DNA of 63,855 nt, filler included. It is 4 parts of 4 records of this genome, joined end to end, with 100 filler letters (N's around TTAATTAATTAA, not from the genome) between each part and the next. Parts side by side here need not be neighbours in the genome. Positions count along the whole stretch, not along the records: positions 55,369 to 63,855 come from SRR31156797_1043; 3 more parts are not named here. One strand, 5' to 3'. Positions within the stretch are counted from its first letter, which is position 1. Each line of letters begins with the position of its first letter. Both the position numbers and the translations under genes were made by a program. Under the pieces are notes generated by a model. That model was given only the letters and a program-made list of their open reading frames with translations. It ran no database searches and was not told the DNA's origin. Positions 20,173-63,855 of the stretch are shown here, piece after piece.

Positions 20173-20272
20173 NNNNNNNNNNNNNNNNNNNNNNNNNNNN
20201 NNNNNNNNNNNNNNNNTTAATTAATTAANNNNNNNNNNNNNNNNNNNNNNNNNNNNNNNNNNNNNNNNNNNN
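20173..20272. other. Artificial contig spacer (N-run + TTAATTAATTAA)
   Basis: Stop-codon linker flanked by Ns; composition and taxonomy change across it. Confidence 0.98.
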
Positions 20273-36011: not shown

Positions 36012-36033
36012 TATCAAATCCATGAGTGATGGA

Positions 36034-37002
36034 ATGAAATCCCAATTTTTGTTGTACATAAAAGAGTATATGAGCAGCCGTCATTATGCGCAGAAAACCA
36101 TAGAAGCTTATATACATTGGATAACGCGATACATCCTTTTTCACAATAAACGCCACCCAAATACAATGGGAACAGCAGAAGTTGAGCTATTTCTAACTCA
36201 TTTGGTGACTAAAAATAATGTAGCAGTAAAGACCCAGGCTTTAGCACTCAATGCACTTAAGTTTCTCTATAGTGAGATTATTCACCAGCCAATCGAAACA
36301 AACATGAAGTTTAAAAAATCGCAGCTTGAACGAAAGCTTCCTGTTGTGCTTACTAAAGAGGAAGTCGTACGTTTCTTCAATCATGTTGATCCTCGATATC
36401 AACTACCAATCAAACTGCTATATGGTTCTGGTTTGAGGTTGATGGAATGTGTTCGGTTGAGAGTTCAAGATATCGATTTTGACTACGGCGCAATAAGAAT
36501 CATGAACGGTAAAGGAGGAAAAAATCGCACAGTGACTCTTGCCAAAGAACTTCACCCTCTACTTCAAGAACAGATAAACGTATCAAAACGTTATTATAAC
36601 AAAGACATGCACACAAAAGGCTACGGCGGGGTTTGGTTACCCAACGCATTGGCAAAGAAATATCCAACTGCACCATTTGAGTTTCACTGGCACTATTTAT
36701 TTCCTTCGCATGTGGCCAGTATCTCTGACTCAACCAATTATTTAAAACGACATCATATTAACGAAACTGCACTTCAACGTTCCGTGAAAAAAAGTGCCCA
36801 ATCTGCGGGAATAGAAAAGCACGTGACTTGCCATACATTAAGGCATTCATTCGCTACCCACCTTCTAGAGCAGGGTTCGGATATCCGAACCGTACAAGAA
36901 CAGCTTGGCCACAGTGACGTGAGAACAACCCAAATATACACACATGTGATCGACCGAGGTGCAAGTGGGGTACGAAGTCCTCTATCGCACTTAGGACTAT
37001 GA
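36034..37002 (+). CDS. intIA: Integron integrase
   Basis: MKSQFL N-terminus as in Vibrio IntIA; YGSGLR, GKGGK.R, integron-specific insertion, HTLRHSFATHLL, LGHSDV.TTQIY; divergent from the cassettes. Confidence 0.97.
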   Translation: MKSQFLLYIKEYMSSRHYAQKTIEAYIHWITRYILFHNKRHPNTMGTAEVELFLTHLVTKNNVAVKTQALALNALKFLYSEIIHQPIETNMKFKKSQLERKLPVVLTKEEVVRFFNHVDPRYQLPIKLLYGSGLRLMECVRLRVQDIDFDYGAIRIMNGKGGKNRTVTLAKELHPLLQEQINVSKRYYNKDMHTKGYGGVWLPNALAKKYPTAPFEFHWHYLFPSHVASISDSTNYLKRHHINETALQRSVKKSAQSAGIEKHVTCHTLRHSFATHLLEQGSDIRTVQEQLGHSDVRTTQIYTHVIDRGASGVRSPLSHLGL

Positions 37003-55268: not shown

Positions 55269-55368
55269 NNNNNNNNNNNNNNNNNNNNNNNNNNNNNNNN
55301 NNNNNNNNNNNNTTAATTAATTAANNNNNNNNNNNNNNNNNNNNNNNNNNNNNNNNNNNNNNNNNNNN
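55269..55368. other. Artificial contig spacer
   Basis: N-run + TTAATTAATTAA. Confidence 0.98.
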
Positions 55369-56292
55369 ACCGGAAACTTCGGCGCCCCCATGAAATACAA
55401 TGATAACTGGGTCGGCCGGTATTACGTCCAGGAAGCAACGCTGGTTGGGCTCTCCTTTGTGCCGGCCGTTTCCTACAGGGTGACCCCCAAATTATCCCTG
55501 GGGGGGAGCATCACGGCAATGAACGGGATTTACAGGAACAAGGTGGCCATCAACAATGTCGACCCCCGCTATGGTGATGGTCAGCTCAAGATGGACGACA
55601 ACGCCTGGGGGTGGGGTATTAACCTGGGGGTACTCTATGAATTCACCGAAGGTACACGGTTTGGACTCACCTGGAACTCTCAGGTGAACCTCGATTTCGG
55701 CGCCCAAGCGGAGTTCTCGAACCTTGCGCCGGGCGTTCAAAATCTTTTGAATCGGCGCGGATTGACGAATTCGACCATTAACGTAGGTATCAGTGTGCCC
55801 CAGCAATTGATGGGGAGTATCTTTTCCCAGGTAAGCGATCGATGGGCGGTTCTGGGAAGTGTGGGTTGGCAGCAATGGTCAAAATTCGGGCAGGTCATGT
55901 TCGGCATCGAGGATACACTCAATCCAACCAGCCTGACACAGCAACTCGACTTCAAGGACACCTGGCATTTTGCTGCGGGAGCTCAATACCGAATCAGTGC
56001 GCCGTGGCTGCTCAATTTCGGCATCGCCTATGACTCGGATTTCCAGGACGGATCCAGCGTTTCCCCCATGTTGCCGGCCAACTCGGCCTGGCGGTTCGGC
56101 GCGGGCGTCGAAAACCAGGTGAACAAAATGTTCAAGTGGGGTGTGGCGGCCGAGTATCTCTACGGCGGGACCCTGGATACCAACCTGCAAAGCACTCTCC
56201 CCGTGGCAGTTGGGCAGCGAGGGGATCTGGTTGGATCTTACGAGAACATCGGGACCCTTTTTGCCAGCGTTTATTTCAACTGGACGTTCTGA
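55369..56292 (+). CDS. OmpP1/FadL-family outer membrane transporter, 5'-truncated
   Basis: W.GRY, G.N.G.LY, W..WS.F, .KDTW....G..Y, terminal aromatic residue (WTF); frame open from the contig start. Confidence 0.85.
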   Translation, partial: TGNFGAPMKYNDNWVGRYYVQEATLVGLSFVPAVSYRVTPKLSLGGSITAMNGIYRNKVAINNVDPRYGDGQLKMDDNAWGWGINLGVLYEFTEGTRFGLTWNSQVNLDFGAQAEFSNLAPGVQNLLNRRGLTNSTINVGISVPQQLMGSIFSQVSDRWAVLGSVGWQQWSKFGQVMFGIEDTLNPTSLTQQLDFKDTWHFAAGAQYRISAPWLLNFGIAYDSDFQDGSSVSPMLPANSAWRFGAGVENQVNKMFKWGVAAEYLYGGTLDTNLQSTLPVAVGQRGDLVGSYENIGTLFASVYFNWTF

Positions 56293-56315
56293 TTCTAAGC
56301 CAAGAGAGAACCCAT

Positions 56316-57281
56316 ATGCGTTATTTGAACGAGAAAGACCTGCTGGCCGTTGGGTTGAACTGGAATGACACAATCGATGCGATTAAAGATGCTGTGGTGT
56401 GTCTTGAGAAGAAGGATTTCGCCCAGCCGGTAAAACCCTACTTGAGATACAGGGACCCCGTAAACCGGATCATCGCCATGCCGGCCTTCGTTGGCGAAAA
56501 AGTGAATCTCGCCGGGATAAAGTGGATCGCCAGTTTTCCGGGCAATATTGATAACGGCATTCCCCGGGCCCACGCCGTTGTGATTCTGAACAAGGCGGAA
56601 ACGGGCGAACCCGTCAGCGTCATCAACACCGCCCTTCTGAGCATCATACGCACAAGCTCCGTCTCAGGTCTGATGATCCGTTATTTCCTTAAAGCCAGGC
56701 CGATGGAGAACATCAACCTTGCCATTATCGGATGGGGCCCGATCGGTCAGCATCATTTCCAAATGGTGACATCCCTTATGGGGGACAACCTGAACAAGAT
56801 TTTCCTGTATGATCTACGGGGAATCGATCAGAACTCAATAGACAGTCCTTATAAGGACAAGATCGTAGTTGTTGATAATTGGCAGGAAGCTTATACGGAT
56901 ACGGATATCTTCATCACCTGTACGGTTTCCAAAGCTCCCTATGTGGATCTGCCGCCGAAAGTAGGTTCCCTGCAGCTGAACTGTTCACTCAGGGACTACA
57001 AGGTGGATATTCTGGACCACACAAAGGCAATCATCGTCGACGACTGGGAAGAATGCTGCCGGGAGAAAACGGATCTTGAAATGATGCATCTTAATAGGGG
57101 CCTGATGGAGCAAGACACGAAATCTATCGCGGATGTGGTGGTTCATAACTGCATGGCCGACTATCCGGCAGAAGAAGCGGTTATGTTCAACCCCATGGGC
57201 ATGGCCATATTCGACATCGCTACCGGGAAGTATTATCTGGAGAAGGCGAGGGAGATGGGCTTGGGCCGGGAGCTTGAGTAA
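56316..57281 (+). CDS. sbnB: SbnB-like 2,3-diaminopropionate biosynthesis protein (ornithine cyclodeaminase family)
   Basis: RIIAMPA...AGIKWIASFPGN...G.PRA.A..ILN...TG.P, G.GPIG, SLRD, FNPMGMAIFD. Confidence 0.8.
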   Translation: MRYLNEKDLLAVGLNWNDTIDAIKDAVVCLEKKDFAQPVKPYLRYRDPVNRIIAMPAFVGEKVNLAGIKWIASFPGNIDNGIPRAHAVVILNKAETGEPVSVINTALLSIIRTSSVSGLMIRYFLKARPMENINLAIIGWGPIGQHHFQMVTSLMGDNLNKIFLYDLRGIDQNSIDSPYKDKIVVVDNWQEAYTDTDIFITCTVSKAPYVDLPPKVGSLQLNCSLRDYKVDILDHTKAIIVDDWEECCREKTDLEMMHLNRGLMEQDTKSIADVVVHNCMADYPAEEAVMFNPMGMAIFDIATGKYYLEKAREMGLGRELE

Positions 57282-57303
57282 CAGCCAATGGGGAGAGCAT
57301 GAG

Positions 57304-57857
57304 ATGACGGATAAGCAGATACACGACAGTGTTCTCGAGCTGGTTGGAAACACCCCCATGGTGCGATTGAACAATATCTGTGCGGATGTGGAGTCCGAGA
57401 TACTCGTCAAGCTGGAGTATCTGAATCCATCCGGAAGTCTGAAAGACAGAATCGCTCTTGAGATGATTGAAGAAGCCGAAAAGTCGGGGCGAATCAAGCC
57501 CGGGGCCACCATCATAGAATCGAGCACCGGCAACACGGGGTTCGCCTTGTCGACCATAGGGAGACTCAAGGGCTACAACACATGGATTTCCCCGCAACTG
57601 AAATCAAGGGCGGGATTATTTCCAAGATGCTCAAATCGGGAGCTGTGGATGAGCTCGTGCGGATCACGGATGGTGAGGCCCGTGAGATGACGCACAGGCT
57701 GTGGCGGGAGGAAGGTCTCTATTGCGGTGTATCGTCGGGGGCAAACGTCTATTTTGCCATGCGGGAAGCGAAAAAGACCGAGAAAAAGCTCAGAATGGTC
57801 ACCCTGCTCAACGACCACATGAACAGGTACCTGACTGAAGAGAGATACGTGACCTGA
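57304..57857 (+). pseudogene. Cysteine synthase (CysK/SbnA)-family PLP enzyme with internal deletion and frameshift
   Basis: N-terminal part (VGNTP, KLE.LNPSGSLKDR, ESSTGNTG) joins at about 57580, out of frame, to the C-terminal part (EEGLYCGVSSGAN, D...RYL). The central GTGG loop region is absent. Confidence 0.8.
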
Positions 57858-57954
57858 TTATCGTAAAAAGTAGTCTGATCTGAGTAATTGTAGTAAAATA
57901 TCATAGGGATATTTAATTTATATTGTGCTAAAACCAAAAAGAGGAGGATACGTG

Positions 57955-58344
57955 ATGAAAACCATAGTGATGTTGATGCTTGCTGCCATGTTGATGATTG
58001 GTGCTGCTCCTGCATACGCAGCTGAAGTCATTCAGATTTTTCACTGTCAACAGGACGATGATGCAACTGAGAAGGATTTGGAAGCGGCTGCTTCGGAGTG
58101 GCTCAAGGCCGCAAAGACAATGAAGGGTGGTGATCAACTGGAGGCCTACCTGCATTTCCCCGTTGTCGCCCAGATGGGTGAAAATGATTTTTTGTTTGTG
58201 ATAAGAGCACCTTCCATGGAGAAGTGGGGTATGTTTATGGATGCTTACCACGGTTCTCCGGCCCAAGAGGTGGACAAGAAGAAGTTTGACGATCTTTGTG
58301 ATTGCCCGGACAGCGCCTTGTGGGAACCCATAAAGATTAAATAG
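57955..58344 (+). CDS. Secreted hypothetical protein
   Basis: RBS GAGGAGG; signal peptide ending AYA; about 129 aa. Confidence 0.75.
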   Translation: MKTIVMLMLAAMLMIGAAPAYAAEVIQIFHCQQDDDATEKDLEAAASEWLKAAKTMKGGDQLEAYLHFPVVAQMGENDFLFVIRAPSMEKWGMFMDAYHGSPAQEVDKKKFDDLCDCPDSALWEPIKIK

Positions 58345-58436
58345 TGGTGTGCCCATCCGATCAAGCCGTTTGTGTAGATTTAAAGCCGCCATTTCAGGGA
58401 CCAATGGGGGTAAATCCACTGGGAAAGCATCATTAA

Positions 58437-59486
58437 ATGTCAGTCGTATGGAGTTGCAATGAGTGGGATCAACTGGAAGAAGTGATTGTCGGAAATCCGC
58501 TGCGTGCGCGATTTCCGACACCGGACCGGAGTACCCTGCTGGCGGAATTCCCCGATCGTTCACTGGAGGAAATACCGCAGGGTCCTTTTCCACAACAGAT
58601 TATTGAAGAGACCGAAGAGGACTTGAATACATTTGTTGCCGTCTTGGAAAAATTGGGCATCACCGTCAAACGCCCGGAAACATGGCCCCACGCGGCCAAA
58701 TTTTCCACCATTCATTGGGAATCCGAAGGGTTCTACAACTACTGCCCCCGCGATGTCATGCTTGTCATAGGCGACCACATCATCGAAACGCCCAATGTCA
58801 TCCGCAGCCGCGCCCAGGAAACATTCAGCTATCGCACCATGATGGTTGACTATCTAAAGTTAGGCGCAAAATGGTACAGCGCCCCCAAGCCCATGCTTTT
58901 AGACTCTCTGTTTGAGGTTGATCCGGACAAACCCACGCCACGGAACCATGAACCCGTTTTTGATGCGGCAAACGTCCTTCGTCTCGGCCGGGATTTGATA
59001 TATCTGGTCAGCGGTACGGGCAACGAAATGGGGGGGGAATGGTTGCAGACCATTTTAGGCGATCATTATCGGGTTCACTTCCTCAAAGATGTCTATTACG
59101 GCTCCCATATTGACTCAACATTTGTGGCCTTGCGCCCCGGCCTGATGCTCTGTAATCCTGCTCGCCTCAGTGACGACACCCTGCCCGGAATCTTAAAACA
59201 GTGGGACGTGATTTACAGTCCACCCATGGAGAATACAGGCAGATACGATGCCGACTACCTATCCAGGAGCATCGGCAGCGACTGGATCGATATGAATCTC
59301 TTCAGCATTAATCCGAATTTGGTCGTGGTCGACCAAGACCAGAAAAATCTGATCAAACTGTTGGAGAAACAGGGTCTCGATGTCATCCCCTTGAAATTGC
59401 GGCACGCCAAAATGTTGGGAGGTGGGTTCCATTGCGTAACCCTGGACATCCGCCGGACGGGAACGCTCCAGCGATATTTTGATTAA
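58437..59486 (+). CDS. Amidinotransferase (StrB1/glycine amidinotransferase family)
   Basis: NEWD.LEEVIVG, YCPRD, FDAAN (Asp), HIDST (His), GGGFHCVTLD (Cys). Confidence 0.92.
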   Translation: MSVVWSCNEWDQLEEVIVGNPLRARFPTPDRSTLLAEFPDRSLEEIPQGPFPQQIIEETEEDLNTFVAVLEKLGITVKRPETWPHAAKFSTIHWESEGFYNYCPRDVMLVIGDHIIETPNVIRSRAQETFSYRTMMVDYLKLGAKWYSAPKPMLLDSLFEVDPDKPTPRNHEPVFDAANVLRLGRDLIYLVSGTGNEMGGEWLQTILGDHYRVHFLKDVYYGSHIDSTFVALRPGLMLCNPARLSDDTLPGILKQWDVIYSPPMENTGRYDADYLSRSIGSDWIDMNLFSINPNLVVVDQDQKNLIKLLEKQGLDVIPLKLRHAKMLGGGFHCVTLDIRRTGTLQRYFD

Positions 59487-59576
59487 ACACCCTGCTTTTT
59501 CGCTATACCCAACAATATTGGCGTTTGAACCCGGGACCCCAAGGGTCTCTACTTCACGACCATGTGGAGAAAACAC

Positions 59577-62500
59577 ATGGCACATATTTTAACAACCATA
59601 TTCATACTCTTCTTTGTCGTGACGTTTGCGGCGTGGCGGCGATACCTTTGGGTGGCGGAAAAGGCGCCGCACGGGCAGGTGGACACCTGCCCATACAGCT
59701 TGACGGATGTCTTTGGCGACCGCCACCTCGTAAACGTACCGCATCAGGAAGGAATAAAGTGGCTTACAGAGGTCTTCAGCCGCTCCGCCCTGAAGTACCC
59801 GGATCTCACGGCCTTGCAGATTCCCCACACCGGAGAGTCCCTGACCTTCGCTGAACTCGACTCGCGGGCCGAAAACGTGGCTGCGGCCCTTTCTCCCTTC
59901 CTCACAGGCCCGGACCAGGTCGTGGCCGTGGCCATGAGCCAGGACAACTGGCAAATCGTTGCCTCTCACCTGGGTATTCTCAAGGCCGGCGGTACCATGA
60001 TGTTCCTCGACACCGCTTTGCCCGAGGCCCTGATCACCCACATGCTCAAGGACGCAGAGCCGGTGGTCATTCTCACGCGGGGGCAAGAGAAGTTCCTAGA
60101 TCTGCCGACCCTCGACATCCTGACCTTGCCGGAGAGGATGCCCCGAAGGGCGTCGCCGTCCTGGCTGGACGACCCAGCAGAGCGCCTTGCCACCATCTTC
60201 TACACGAGCGGAACCACCGGGATGCCCAAGGGCGTGGAGTGCCCGCACGCAGGCTATGTGAACCTGGCCCTGAGCTACGCCGATTATTTTGATCTCATTC
60301 CGGGCATGGACGCCACCTCGCTCACATCATCCTTGGGATACGACGGCAGCATCTCCGAGATGTACAGCGCCTGGGTGTCGGGTTGCGCTGTGGTCATGCT
60401 GACCAAGGAGCAGATACGGTCCGGCCCGGACCTCGTTGCCGTTCTCCGTGAAGCTGAGGTGACGGTGCTCTTCTGTCCGCCGGTGCTGCTGACCACCCTC
60501 ACATCAACCCCCGAGCTTGATCTTCCCTACCCCCTGTGCCGCTACGTGGTACCTGCGGGGGAAGCCTTCCCCGCCACGCTCGTGGCGCCCTGGACCCGCG
60601 GCAGAAGGCAGATCATCAACACCTACGGCCCTACGGAGGCGAGCACCGACACGAGCCGCCAGAGCCTGCGGCCGGGGGAGCCCATCACCATAGGCTCGCC
60701 CTTCGCCAACGTCACCTACGTCATCCTCGAGGTGGACCAGCTTCGTCCACTGCCCCACGGGGAGGTGGGCGAACTCTGCATCGGCGGGGTACACGTTGGG
60801 CGGGGGTACCGCAACTTGCCGGAACAAACGGCCCGGAAGTTCATCACGCACCCCCGGTTCGGCCGCCTCTTCCGTACCGGGGATAAATGCAAAATCGACA
60901 TCCGGACACAGCGCGTGCACTTCCTCGGCCGAATCGACGCGCAGCTCAAGGTGCGCGGGCACCGCGTGGAGATACAGCCCGTTGAAGACATCCTCCAGAC
61001 GCAGTTCAGGGAAATCGAAGCCGCTGTGCTGGACTACCAGAACCAGGAGTTGGTCGCCTTCGTGGCCGCGCCGTCGGTCTCCGAAGCTGTTGTCCCGGGG
61101 GTCGTTCCGGCGCCGGCGGCATGGGCTGCCCGGGTCACGGCGACCCTGGCCGGACAACTTCCAGAGCCGTCGGTCCCCACGAGGATCTTCCTGGTGGAAA
61201 AATTCGCCATGAAGCCCATGTCCGGAAAAATCGACCGGGGATGCTTGCCCGACCTGTCCCATCTGCCGACAACCGCCGATCCGGAATCGGCGGACGCCTG
61301 CAGTGGCGCACCGACCCGCACGGAGAACAGAGATGCGGGGAAAGCCAAACCGCCCCACACCGATTCGGGCGTGGAACCGGGCTGTGAGGAAGTGCTTGAG
61401 ATCTGCAGGGCCGTGTTTGAAACCCCGTTGGGATGGGACGATGTATTCGCTGACAATGGTGGGCACTCCATCGTCATGGCACGACTGGCGCAGCGCTTGC
61501 AGGCCGCAGGATGGGCGGCGCCGGTCCGGGCGCTCCTCAGTGACTGCGACACCCCGCGAAAGGTGGCTGATCGCCCGCGGCAGCACCGGCAGGCCTCCGA
61601 GACCCCCACGGCTGTCGCGGAATCCCACCGAAAATGCACAGATCGGGATGAAACAGCGGCAAGGGTACTCTCCGTGAGATATTTCACCGTCCTGCAGGTC
61701 TTGTTCCTGTGGTTGCTGTACTCCCCCCCCTAATGGGTTTTCTGGGGCTCATCGCTTTCGCGGAAATCGGCGAGTTCTTTATGACCGCACACCTCTGGGA
61801 GTTCATTGGCGTCGGCTTTTTGATGTACTTGTTTGCCCTTGTCCTGCCCTTCGCCGGCCTGCTCTGGGTCATGGTGATCAAGCGTTTCATGGGCGGTGAC
61901 ATTTACCGAAACAATGTGACGCCGGGCGCGTACCCCAAGTGGAGCAGAATGCATCTGCGAACCTGGTGTATCGGGCGGCTGGAAGCGACAGTCCTCGGCC
62001 CCTTAGGTACAATGTTTCGCAGCGCGCCGCTCATGGCATATGTACTGCGGCGGCTCGGGGCCACCGTGGGCGACAACCTTCAGTGCGCGCACAACGCGAC
62101 GTTCTCCGGACCGCTGGACTTACTCTCCGTAGAGGACGATGTGGCCATCCAGACCGGCGCCTACATCCACATGTCGAGGTGGGTGGGGCAGGAGTTAATT
62201 ATGGGTCCTGTTCATCTTGCGAGCGGCTGCAAGATCGGAATGCGGGCCGCCGTCGCCAACCATGTGAGGGTGGGCCGCGGCGCCTGGATCACGCCCTTTA
62301 CGCCCATCCTCGGCGACGTCGGTTCCAAGGAGATGTGGGAGGGAGCCCCGGCGAGATTCAGTGGCTGTTGCACCGAACTGAAGCGTACGGCGAACAGCTG
62401 CCGGTACGCGTACCCGTCCTGGTTTTTGGAGACCCTTAACATCCTGATGCAGATCTTTTTGGACTTCTGGCTCTTGGTGGCTCCCACCGCTGCGGTTACC

Positions 62501-63855
62501 TGGTTCGCCGTCACCTTCATACCCGCCAGAGGAACAGCGCTCGCCAGTGAATACTTCAAGATAACGCCTCTGCACGAGATTGTCTGGCACATGGGACTCT
62601 ACGCGTTCATCACCTCCTGGGTCACAGTCGTCCTCATCTCAGTGCTGGGCTGCCTCTTTCTTCGCTGCACGGCCGCCTCGCCGGGGCTGTACCCCTCGCG
62701 CGGGCTCAAGGCCGCTCTCCTCATGTACAGACTGAAGAAGATGAACCGGATCCAGCGCCTGTGGACCTGGAGTATCACCGGGCAATATCTGCGCGCACTG
62801 GCCGGCGTGCGTTTTTCGCGCGTGGGCGCCTCGGAGTGCGACGTCATGTTCAACCTTGTTCCGGAGGCTGCCGGCGCCGACGCCCAGGTGTTCTGGTCCA
62901 ATGGGGGCTTCACGAACATGCTCGATTATGGCGCCGAGCACTTAAAGCTTCGCCGGCTCGACATGCCCGCCAATTTCTTCAGCGGTAATAATTGCGTCGC
63001 CGAGTCCGGGCAATTCCCCACCAATTTCCTCCTGGGCGTCTCCACCCCGGGGAATGATATACTATTCCGGCGCCAGATGCAGTCGCGGCTCGGCGAACCC
63101 ATCACTGTGGCTGGAAACCCGCCGGTGAAATTTGCCAGCGCCGACTTTGAGGCGGAAAATGAAGCCCATGATCTGCCGAGCCTCCCCCTCTTTATGGGGC
63201 GCGTCTTCCTGAATGACATTTTCAGCGGCGGCATTCTGCACATCGCCAATGTACTTGTATATGTGGTTTTGTACACCATCCTGCTGCGGTTGGACGTCCA
63301 CCTGGTCGTCAGCGCATTCATAGCTCTGATTCTCGCAGAGGTCATCCTGGTTGTGTCCTGCGCCGGAACCAAGAAGCTCCTCGTGGGCAGCTGGGGTTCC
63401 GCTCACGCAACCCCATTCTGGTCCTGGCGGCACTTCACCTACTTCTTTGCGCAGGACTGCTTCTTCGCCTGGTGCAGGATCCCTTTGGCAATTTCGGCCG
63501 GGACTGTGTTCTCGAATATTATCCTTCGGGTCATGGGGTGCCGGATCGGCAAAGGGACCATTCTTACCTCGCCCATGCAGGCCTCCGACTGGAACGCGGT
63601 GCGCTTGGGAAACGATTGCATTATCGGCGGTTTTCTGCAGTTCCACACCCTCGAAAATATGATGCTGAAGGTGAAGCGAACCCACATCCGGGACGGCGGC
63701 GCCGTCAACTTCGGCGCCACGGTCATGGGCGGTGCGGTCATGGAACCTGGGACAACGCTCCTGCCCTTGAGCATGGTCCTGAAGGAGATGCACCTGCCCT
63801 CAGGGACTTACTGGGGCAGCCCCGCGGAACCTATCGTTCAACACGCCTCTCCCCT
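59577..63855 (+). CDS. Pls/PosA-like membrane NRPS (A-T-TM-three beta-helix domains), frameshifted at C8 (61723-61730) and running off the window
   Basis: A domain YTSGTTGMPKG, NTYGPTE, GELCIGG, RTGD, GRID.QLKVRGHR.E, SGKIDR; T domain GGHS. A second frame from 61733 stays open to the window end, with PG.YP.W, LG..(V/I)G hexapeptide repeats, W.G.PA and HTLEN motifs. Confidence 0.85.

Follow-up and report, generated by a model that had tools for sequence, protein, structure and literature searches.

A recurring pair of amidinotransferase and Pls-like synthetase genes, frameshifted in a stretch of 63,855 nucleotides and with a predicted guanidino-bearing isopeptide as product

Pls of Streptomyces albulus, PosA of Acinetobacter baumannii and the PDAP synthetase are the closest described systems to the locus analysed here. 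A Glu at position 3 of the adenylation code is reported to be conserved in all cationic homopoly(amino acid) (CHPA) synthetases and position 2 sets the chain length, with Phe for L-2,3-diaminopropionate (Dap) (PMC10522769). The position-3 Glu is the hallmark of mode 1, and in SulM A3 an Asp at each of positions 8 and 9 binds the beta-amine of Dap (PMC12042044). Pls operons carry a peptidase (pls-pldII; PMC8117764), and the Bdello_A clade of Pls-like proteins (code DSECYGGVTK) activates a guanidino amino acid, arginine (PMC10522769). In the pheganomycin and ketomemicin pathways, an amidinotransferase makes a guanidino acid that is coupled by a PGM1-type ATP-grasp ligase; PGM1 itself couples an alpha-guanidino acid (PMC8939145), and an amidinotransferase-ligase pairing also appears in PMC11943689. 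The window, by which we mean the whole stretch of 63,855 nucleotides, holds on its last record a cassette in which the gene of a StrB1-like amidinotransferase is followed by that of a Pls-like nonribosomal peptide synthetase (NRPS). This pair recurs across phyla and, from sequence comparison, intact cassettes are tentatively predicted, with a little under an even chance, to make a short guanidino-bearing (beta-linked, amidinated Dap) cationic isopeptide.

Like Pls, PosA and the PDAP synthetase, the cassette synthetase combines adenylation (A) and carrier (T) domains with a membrane beta-helix domain, matches TIGR02353 and carries the C3 motif Gln-x-His-x-x-Glu; a peptidase gene lies nearby in many cassette copies, and Dap-supplying genes accompany the synthetase as they do for PDAP. 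In contrast to those enzymes, the cassette proteins form a separate clade, lack the position-3 Glu, have Asn-Met for Asp-Arg in C3 and bear an extra N-terminal helix, and their partners are an amidinotransferase, a phosphopantetheinyl transferase (PPTase) and a TraX or DUF418 protein. The pathway is Pls-like, but it falls outside Pls/PosA membership on two counts, the TIGR02353 cut-off and the position-3 Glu.

Loci were fetched with the amidinotransferase from genomes (80 kept of 90 found) and with the Pls-like C-terminus from metagenomes (80 kept of 399 found), giving 160 in total; many of the genome loci belong to one Danish-style series of metagenome-assembled genomes (MAGs), so that the rows are not all independent. 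The 120 best amidinotransferase matches were 87-95% identical. In 74 of the 80 amidinotransferase loci a Pls-like gene was present: it came next in 68, lay a single gene away in 3 and was elsewhere in the locus in 3; four of the remaining loci were too short to judge and two were without Pls. When five of these six genomes were searched whole, Pls was found on another contig in two. Conversely, the amidinotransferase was present in 32 of 38 informative Pls-anchored loci: directly upstream in 28, elsewhere in 4 (still within the locus after an inversion) and absent from 6, with 42 of the 80 too short to judge. The usual gene order is sbnA-sbnB-amidinotransferase-Pls-PPTase-TraX or DUF418, and the record titles name Alpha- and Gammaproteobacteria, Acidobacteriota, Desulfobacterota, Verrucomicrobiota, Gemmatimonadota, Nitrospira, a cyanobacterium and Oligoflexales. 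An earlier note on this DNA had named, as one thing that would refute its reading, a pairing not conserved elsewhere; the pairing is conserved across phyla. The note knew of no described amidinotransferase-Pls pathway, and none was found in our literature search, which left most subscription papers outside; the code table in the supplement of PMC10522769, also outside the search, could list this clade. Pls-like genes are duplicated within the cassette in three loci of soil Alphaproteobacteria without adjacent sbnAB (L015, L050 and L051).

The amidinotransferase gene (58437..59486, plus strand, as are all genes of the cassette) is intact. Its best match in the Protein Data Bank (PDB) is StrB1, L-arginine:inosamine-phosphate amidinotransferase (1BWD, E 7.6e-109), with which the catalytic Asp, His and Cys align. 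Asp106, Asp176, His224 and Cys333 are kept in 100 of 100 aligned rows and Asp226 in 96; the Cys-His-Asp triad that had been noticed from the letters (Asp176, His224, Cys333) is thus fully conserved. We take the roles of triad and amidine-binding Asp to fall to these residues. The flap, YYGSH, is specific to this clade: a StrB1-type plasmid protein of about 49% identity has LYASTH instead and lacks a 4-residue insert that is present here, and no aminocyclitol genes recur near the cassette amidinotransferase. The nearest plasmid-borne relative, from Robbsia, is 62% identical with the same flap and insert. It lies in a cluster of Robbsia andropogonis (L161:3696-13041) with ectB, SIS, SDR, PGM1-related ligase and aldehyde dehydrogenase genes, two genes from the ligase and near ectB. 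That a close relative of the cassette enzyme lies by a PGM1-related gene recalls the pheganomycin and ketomemicin pathways; the cassette differs from them in that coupling falls to a membrane NRPS-like protein and an oligomer is the likely product. This single neighbour is a lead that would indirectly favour alpha-amidination.

Other arrangements of related amidinotransferases were also seen. Four actinomycete-like sequences (P0242-P0245) fuse a StrB1-like amidinotransferase (about 48% identity) to a class II aminoacyl-tRNA-ligase-like domain (PF00152), another pairing of amidination with amino-acid activation. Streptoalloteichus hindustanus, which is known to make cationic homopolymers, has a TauD-amidinotransferase fusion (P0246). 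In a Caldilineaceae locus (L010:1436-7827), a 75% identical amidinotransferase follows a polyketide synthase and an NRPS of condensation (C)-A-T-reductase type, and no Pls-like gene was found in that genome. An apparent fusion of amidinotransferase and A domain (P0241) was rejected as a deletion chimera without the catalytic His and Cys and half of the A domain.

The Pls-like synthetase follows directly after the amidinotransferase, as the earlier note had it, with A and T domains and a TIGR02353-like C-terminus; its gene is however split by a frameshift at a run of eight C and runs off the window end. The first half (59577..61733) encodes an N-terminal hydrophobic helix, an A domain with the code DGSFVATTDK and the carrier Ser in GGHS, and ends in a premature stop; 59577 is the probable start, although an open reading frame (ORF) finder gives 59562. 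Full-length relatives are mostly single chains of 1,400-1,470 amino acids, 74-90% identical over the C-terminal half. They have a single A-T module and then the membrane C-terminal domain, without C or thioesterase domain, as in the Pls/PosA (CHPA) synthetases. With the code register set against TycA (D261 G262 S265 F304 V330 A332 T354 T362 D363 K556), 80 of 90 rows read DGSFVATTDK; seven have DGPFVATSDK and three DGSFIATTDK. D261, G262, D363, K556 and the carrier Ser636 are kept in 170 of 170 rows; position 3 is Ser in 163 of these and Pro in 7, and the Glu hallmark of Pls/PosA is absent. In the clade code, then, position 2 is Gly, position 9 carries the one Asp and Glu is missing from position 3. 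A protein whose C-terminus is 36% identical (P0252) has the identical code DGSFVATTDK. The same extraction returned DSECYGGVTK, as printed in PMC10522769, for seven distant Pls-like matches. These Bdello_A-code proteins keep Glu at position 3, unlike the cassette clade, and are not its sister in quick trees. The near-invariant code would point to one common substrate across the clade. That substrate, we infer from the sequence register, is short: Asp363 would hold its beta-amine, and a group bulkier than an amine would sit near Asp261 and Gly262. Alpha-amidinated Dap would fit such a pocket and, unlike 3-guanidinoalanine, would leave the side-chain amine free for isopeptide chemistry.

The second half of the synthetase (61733..63855) matches TIGR02353 (E 8.1e-41, about 140 bits); the two scores obtained with this family, 140.1 and 145.7 bits, lie below the curated cut-off of 423.1. 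A structure model of this half (pLDDT 74.1, pTM 0.77) shows three helical hairpins, each with a left-handed beta-helix; repeats 1 and 3 of the beta-helix are confident in the model, the middle one is weak, and hydropathy agrees with the hairpins. Foldseek and VIA-align relate this modelled fold to acyltransferases with a left-handed beta-helix (E 4.7e-6; Z 16.7, rmsd 1.8 over 97 residues), and PosA has been modelled with the same kind of fold. The C3 motif QFHTLENM lies at about 63638-63661; all 101 rows have Gln636, His638 and Glu641, as do 15 of 16 distant Pls-like rows. The cassette synthetases form one clade with 100% SH-aLRT support in quick trees of both domains and have an extra hydrophobic helix at the N-terminus. 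Among clusters at 50% identity, fragments of 45-89% identity and one protein of 36% are followed, after a gap, by Pls-like proteins of 23-31%. Three proteins of 2,000-2,300 amino acids with Pls-like domains (P0333, P0348 and P0352) are the nearest outside rows in the quick trees, and their N-termini look eukaryotic.

Accessory genes were counted in 55 well-covered loci, with at least 3.5 kb of upstream and at least 3 kb of downstream sequence. TraX was present in 41, DUF418 in 7, neither in 7 and both in none; over all 160 loci the counts were 77 and 27, again never together, with at least five swaps between the two on the tree. Both proteins match Acyl_transf_3, at 37.3 bits (above the cut-off) and 29.2 bits (just below it). 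Because these two membrane acyltransferase-like families are interchangeable, they point to a needed step, presumably acylation or transfer. A PPTase gene was found in 30 of the 55 loci and a gene for an S41 or DUF4344 peptidase in 34. S41 (30 loci) and a small secreted protein described below (16 loci) never coincide in the 55, and a single locus (L055) has both among all 160; a functional meaning of this exclusion was rejected, as it follows the main split of the tree.

A predicted source of Dap commonly lies beside the pair. In 50 of the 80 amidinotransferase loci, sbnB was found within 2.5 kb upstream, on the strand of the pair; in 2 it lies elsewhere, and 10 were not judgeable. One representative each of SbnA (L024, 376.9 bits) and SbnB (L048, 384.8 bits) from usual cassettes scored above the TIGR03945 and TIGR03944 cut-offs, as expected of SbnA/SbnB of staphyloferrin B; in contrast to the staphyloferrin B system, siderophore synthetases do not recur beside the cassette. 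Sixty SbnB proteins fell into six clusters, 26-53% identical to each other, and the amidinotransferases beside these clusters are 74-95% identical to that of the window. Because the SbnB clusters are diverse while the core is far more uniform, this suggests that a Dap source may have been recruited repeatedly to a uniform core. Presence of sbnB changes at least nine times on the tree. Conserved columns are somewhat more diverged in copies without sbnB (Pls halves, p 0.014 and 0.030; amidinotransferase, p 0.19; uncorrected for kinship), which fits decay but is no proof of it.

In an intact cassette, SbnA and SbnB would supply Dap, and the amidinotransferase would transfer the amidino group of arginine to it, most likely at the alpha-amine, so that the beta-amine stays free. 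Once the PPTase had primed the carrier domain, the A domain would activate the amidinated Dap; in its pocket the beta-amine would be bound by Asp363, and the alpha group, lying by Gly262, by Asp261. The membrane beta-helix domain would then link the units through the beta-amine, as Pls and the PDAP synthetase do with side-chain amines. The TraX or DUF418 protein would likely acylate or anchor the product, and the S41 or DUF4344 peptidase would likely trim or detoxify it. Several observations weigh against this scheme. Dap was not accepted by AmtA, the one amidinotransferase tried with it in the literature covered (PMC4887976). The code has one side-chain acid and fully matches none of the three published diamino-acid modes; the middle beta-helix is poorly predicted (pLDDT <50 at 361-395 and 410-480); and C3 ends in Asn-Met (88 and 100 of 101 rows) instead of the Asp-Arg of distant Pls-like proteins (14 and 15 of 16), and the acceptor may therefore not be the same as theirs. 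Supply of Dap raises further difficulties: sbnB is missing from 18 of the 80 amidinotransferase loci with at least 2.5 kb of upstream sequence, and all 11 well-covered loci without sbnB keep the same adenylation code. A set of 25 genomes was selected for having no intact sbnB alongside (MAGs of unstated completeness, two of them, L010 and L011, also without Pls); in these, SbnB exceeded its cut-off in 1 and SbnA in 2, and the next SbnB scores were at most 157 bits. The window SbnB, finally, has a partner that is CysK-like rather than SbnA-like.

Four other explanations were weighed against this amidinated-Dap isopeptide. The cassette could modify the envelope: aided by TraX or DUF418, the synthetase would place one or a few residues of 3-guanidino-L-alanine (beta-amidinated Dap, with no free side-chain amine), made by the amidinotransferase, on a membrane lipid or glycan, so that the surface would gain positive charge as with the Dlt or Alm systems. 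The mutually exclusive membrane acyltransferase-like genes in 48 of the 55 well-covered loci, the extra N-terminal helix, the altered C3 motif, a C-terminal fold that matches sugar and serine O/N-acyltransferases, and a code with Gly in second and Ser in third place, which would open the pocket, all suit such a role, as does the activation of arginine by a Bdellovibrionales Pls-like A domain (PMC10522769). We nevertheless consider it rather unlikely: 34 of 55 loci have peptidase genes, as would suit a product held by peptide bonds; the 45 neighbour families met most often include no recurring genes for glycans or lipids; and the beta-helix fold is common to true polymerases such as PosA. Distinctly less probable is that the acceptor, instead of Dap, is a generally available amine (lysine, ornithine or diaminobutyrate), giving homoarginine or similar, with sbnAB as optional passengers. 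It would account for the genomes that have the pair without SbnA or SbnB above cut-off and keep the same code; McyK, an inosamine-phosphate amidinotransferase, is cited for homoarginine formation (PMC12283262), and the Robbsia relative lies near ectB. The six distinct SbnB clusters beside the same core speak against it, and Phe at code position 4, with no acid at 3 or 4, disfavours a long cationic side chain.

It is improbable as well that the synthetase polymerises plain Dap, as the PDAP synthetase does with NjxA/NjxB (PMC4668381), and that the amidinotransferase modifies or caps the finished chain; although Asp at positions 1 and 9 would suit free Dap, as in SulM A3 (PMC12042044), the PDAP synthetase has Phe at 2 and CHPA synthetases Glu at 3 (PMC10522769), where this clade has Gly and Ser and hence a roomier pocket. 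A neighbourhood that arose by chance or in assembly is hardly credible. The window does consist of concatenated records, and its sbnB-cysK block is movable and decaying; yet pairing and accessory genes recur across loci, contigs of an overlapping assembly show no differences, and for the amidinotransferase-Pls pair accident is refuted by the adjacency conserved in 68 of 80 loci.

The natural cationic homopoly(amino acid)s in the literature covered all derive from unmodified diamino acids, and a guanidino-bearing homopolymer would extend this class, which is used for preservatives and cell-penetrating agents. If the predicted amidinated-Dap isopeptide is made, it would bring a new adenylation code, a new amidinotransferase reaction and a function tied to TraX-like and DUF418 proteins. 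A bolder form of this proposal, which we regard as doubtful, is that soils and marine sediments harbour bacteria, from at least six phyla, that produce a natural beta-linked, alpha-guanidinylated Dap isopeptide by way of a Pls clade of new specificity, and that TraX or DUF418, as interchangeable membrane acyltransferases, acylate it to a cationic lipo-oligomer; this would be a biological counterpart of the synthetic polyguanidine antimicrobials and give a first function to DUF418 and non-conjugative TraX proteins.

The copy in the window bears two observed lesions. The synthetase gene is present as two ORFs (59562-61733, and 61709 to past the window end), broken at a C8 run (61723..61730, plus strand) that is one base shorter than in aligned in-frame relatives. 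The junction is in frame in 122 of 125 loci. The three out-of-frame loci (L085, L086 and L120, two of them identical over the tract) all have a C run of at least 7, so that the frame is lost in 3 of 13 loci with such a run and in 0 of 112 without; programmed phase variation at the run is possible. Upstream, the cysK-like gene (57304..57857, plus strand) is a pseudogene of a pyridoxal-phosphate enzyme: it measures 554 bp against 969 bp in the intact orthologue of L082 (by alignment), a deletion of 415 bp after about 57579 having removed the middle of the protein and shifted the frame (PALP profile 2-83, then 236-295). Run X1 is the probable source of the window DNA and not an independent sample; its contigs cover 55369-60728 and 60700-63855 at about 40x (C8 contig 40.9x) without differences or gaps, and contain both the cysK deletion and the unchanged C8 run. 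Because these contigs match the window, both lesions are probably in the DNA itself rather than made by one assembler, and assembly error was judged unlikely as their cause. The window proteins deviate from conserved columns at 2 of 243, 1 of 392 and 2 of 336 positions, no more than their relatives; an old pseudogene was therefore rejected, and the frameshift appears to be recent. With the synthetase frameshifted and cysK deleted in both assemblies, this cassette copy is probably inactive and probably makes nothing. For functional testing it is the wrong copy; L022, a complete Halioglobus genome, and L006, delta proteobacterium NaphS2, have intact cassettes. Beyond the end of the window, the X1 contig goes on to homologues of PPTase and TraX. 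The small-share runs X2, X3 and X5 gave only many short related pieces. Another X1 contig, of 11,700 bp at 615x, belongs to a second, abundant organism with another Pls-like C-terminus, about 82% like that of L082.

The genes of the locus, FadL, SbnB-like, CysK-like, the small signal-peptide protein, amidinotransferase and Pls-like synthetase, lie co-oriented on the last record (55369-63855). A gene for a FadL/OmpP1-type outer-membrane channel (55369..56292, plus strand) opens it, with its 5' part missing at the record start (PF03349 profile 121-414 of 421); the channel that had been described upstream exists, although the record boundary at 55369 that cuts it had been overlooked. Its homologues are 90% identical in L001, L082 and L083, and it belongs to the neighbouring block, outside the conserved cassette. 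The next gene, intact, encodes an SbnB-like dehydrogenase of the Dap synthesis family (56316..57281, plus strand), in agreement with the co-oriented sbnB noted before. It scores 319.2 bits with TIGR03944, against a cut-off of 326.9 and 111.7 for the next family, and its best PDB match is 4M54 (E 4.7e-44), which we take to be SbnB of S. aureus. The clade of this protein is rare: identity is only 26-30% with the two SbnB clades common in cassettes and 53% with the SbnB of L005, and its cluster is shared with L082 and L083; with this query the clade was not found in 301 genomes of the phylum of L001. The adjoining gene had been called CysK/SbnA-family: CysK-like sequence is present, but as the broken pseudogene, and its intact L082 orthologue is no SbnA, scoring 266.6 bits as CysK/CysM and 193.2 as SbnA (TIGR03945 cut-off 349.95), with PDB matches likewise closer to CysK. 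Unlike the staphyloferrin B enzymes, then, the window SbnB has a partner that is both CysK-like and deleted.

An AT-rich intergenic gap follows (57858..57954), much as the earlier note had placed it; GC is 0.375 within 57800-57999. A promoter scan gave 2 sites where 4.3 were expected, with no sigma-70 consensus match inside the gap. The suggestion that sbnB may belong to a separate transcript gains from the closest relatives: in L082 and L083 the FadL-sbnB-cysK-secreted block lies on the opposite strand downstream of TraX, and L001 has the same block, likewise placed, minus most of sbnB and all of cysK. The secreted protein, also correctly noticed, is small with a signal-peptide-like N-terminus (57955..58344, plus strand) and has no Pfam or NCBIfam family. 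In the marine-type clade it recurrently accompanies the cassette, and by tblastn it was found in 53 of 160 loci. It falls in unnamed clusters at 0.90-0.91, and the NIPSNAP label carried by 12% of members of one cluster at 0.84 is a lead only. It has conserved cysteines, and an inverted second paralogue lies about 1.7 kb past the window end on the X1 contig.

The four records of the window are joined by linkers (N44-TTAATTAATTAA-N44) at 20173, 34614 and 55269. The last linker (55269..55368) separates the cassette from a different record of lower GC with Vibrio-like genes, a label that comes from reading the translated genes; the last record, unlike it, has a GC of 0.50-0.67 in most 200-base bins. 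The named relatives nearest the window are delta proteobacterium NaphS2 (L006) and a Desulfobacteraceae MAG (L001), the latter 82-89% identical in DNA from block to block; both group with the window in the tree. The host is likely a Gram-negative, sediment-type member of the Desulfobacterota, an assignment kept weak because the cassette moves between phyla. An Rfam scan of 55369-63855 gave no match at E up to 1, and on 7 loci Rfam found only a tRNA, with no lead to a guanidine riboswitch. Two further proteins were read from translation elsewhere in the window: a tyrosine recombinase resembling an integron integrase (36022-37002) on the Vibrio-like record, and a double-GAF, PAS-like, adenylate cyclase-like protein (233-2602) on the first record.

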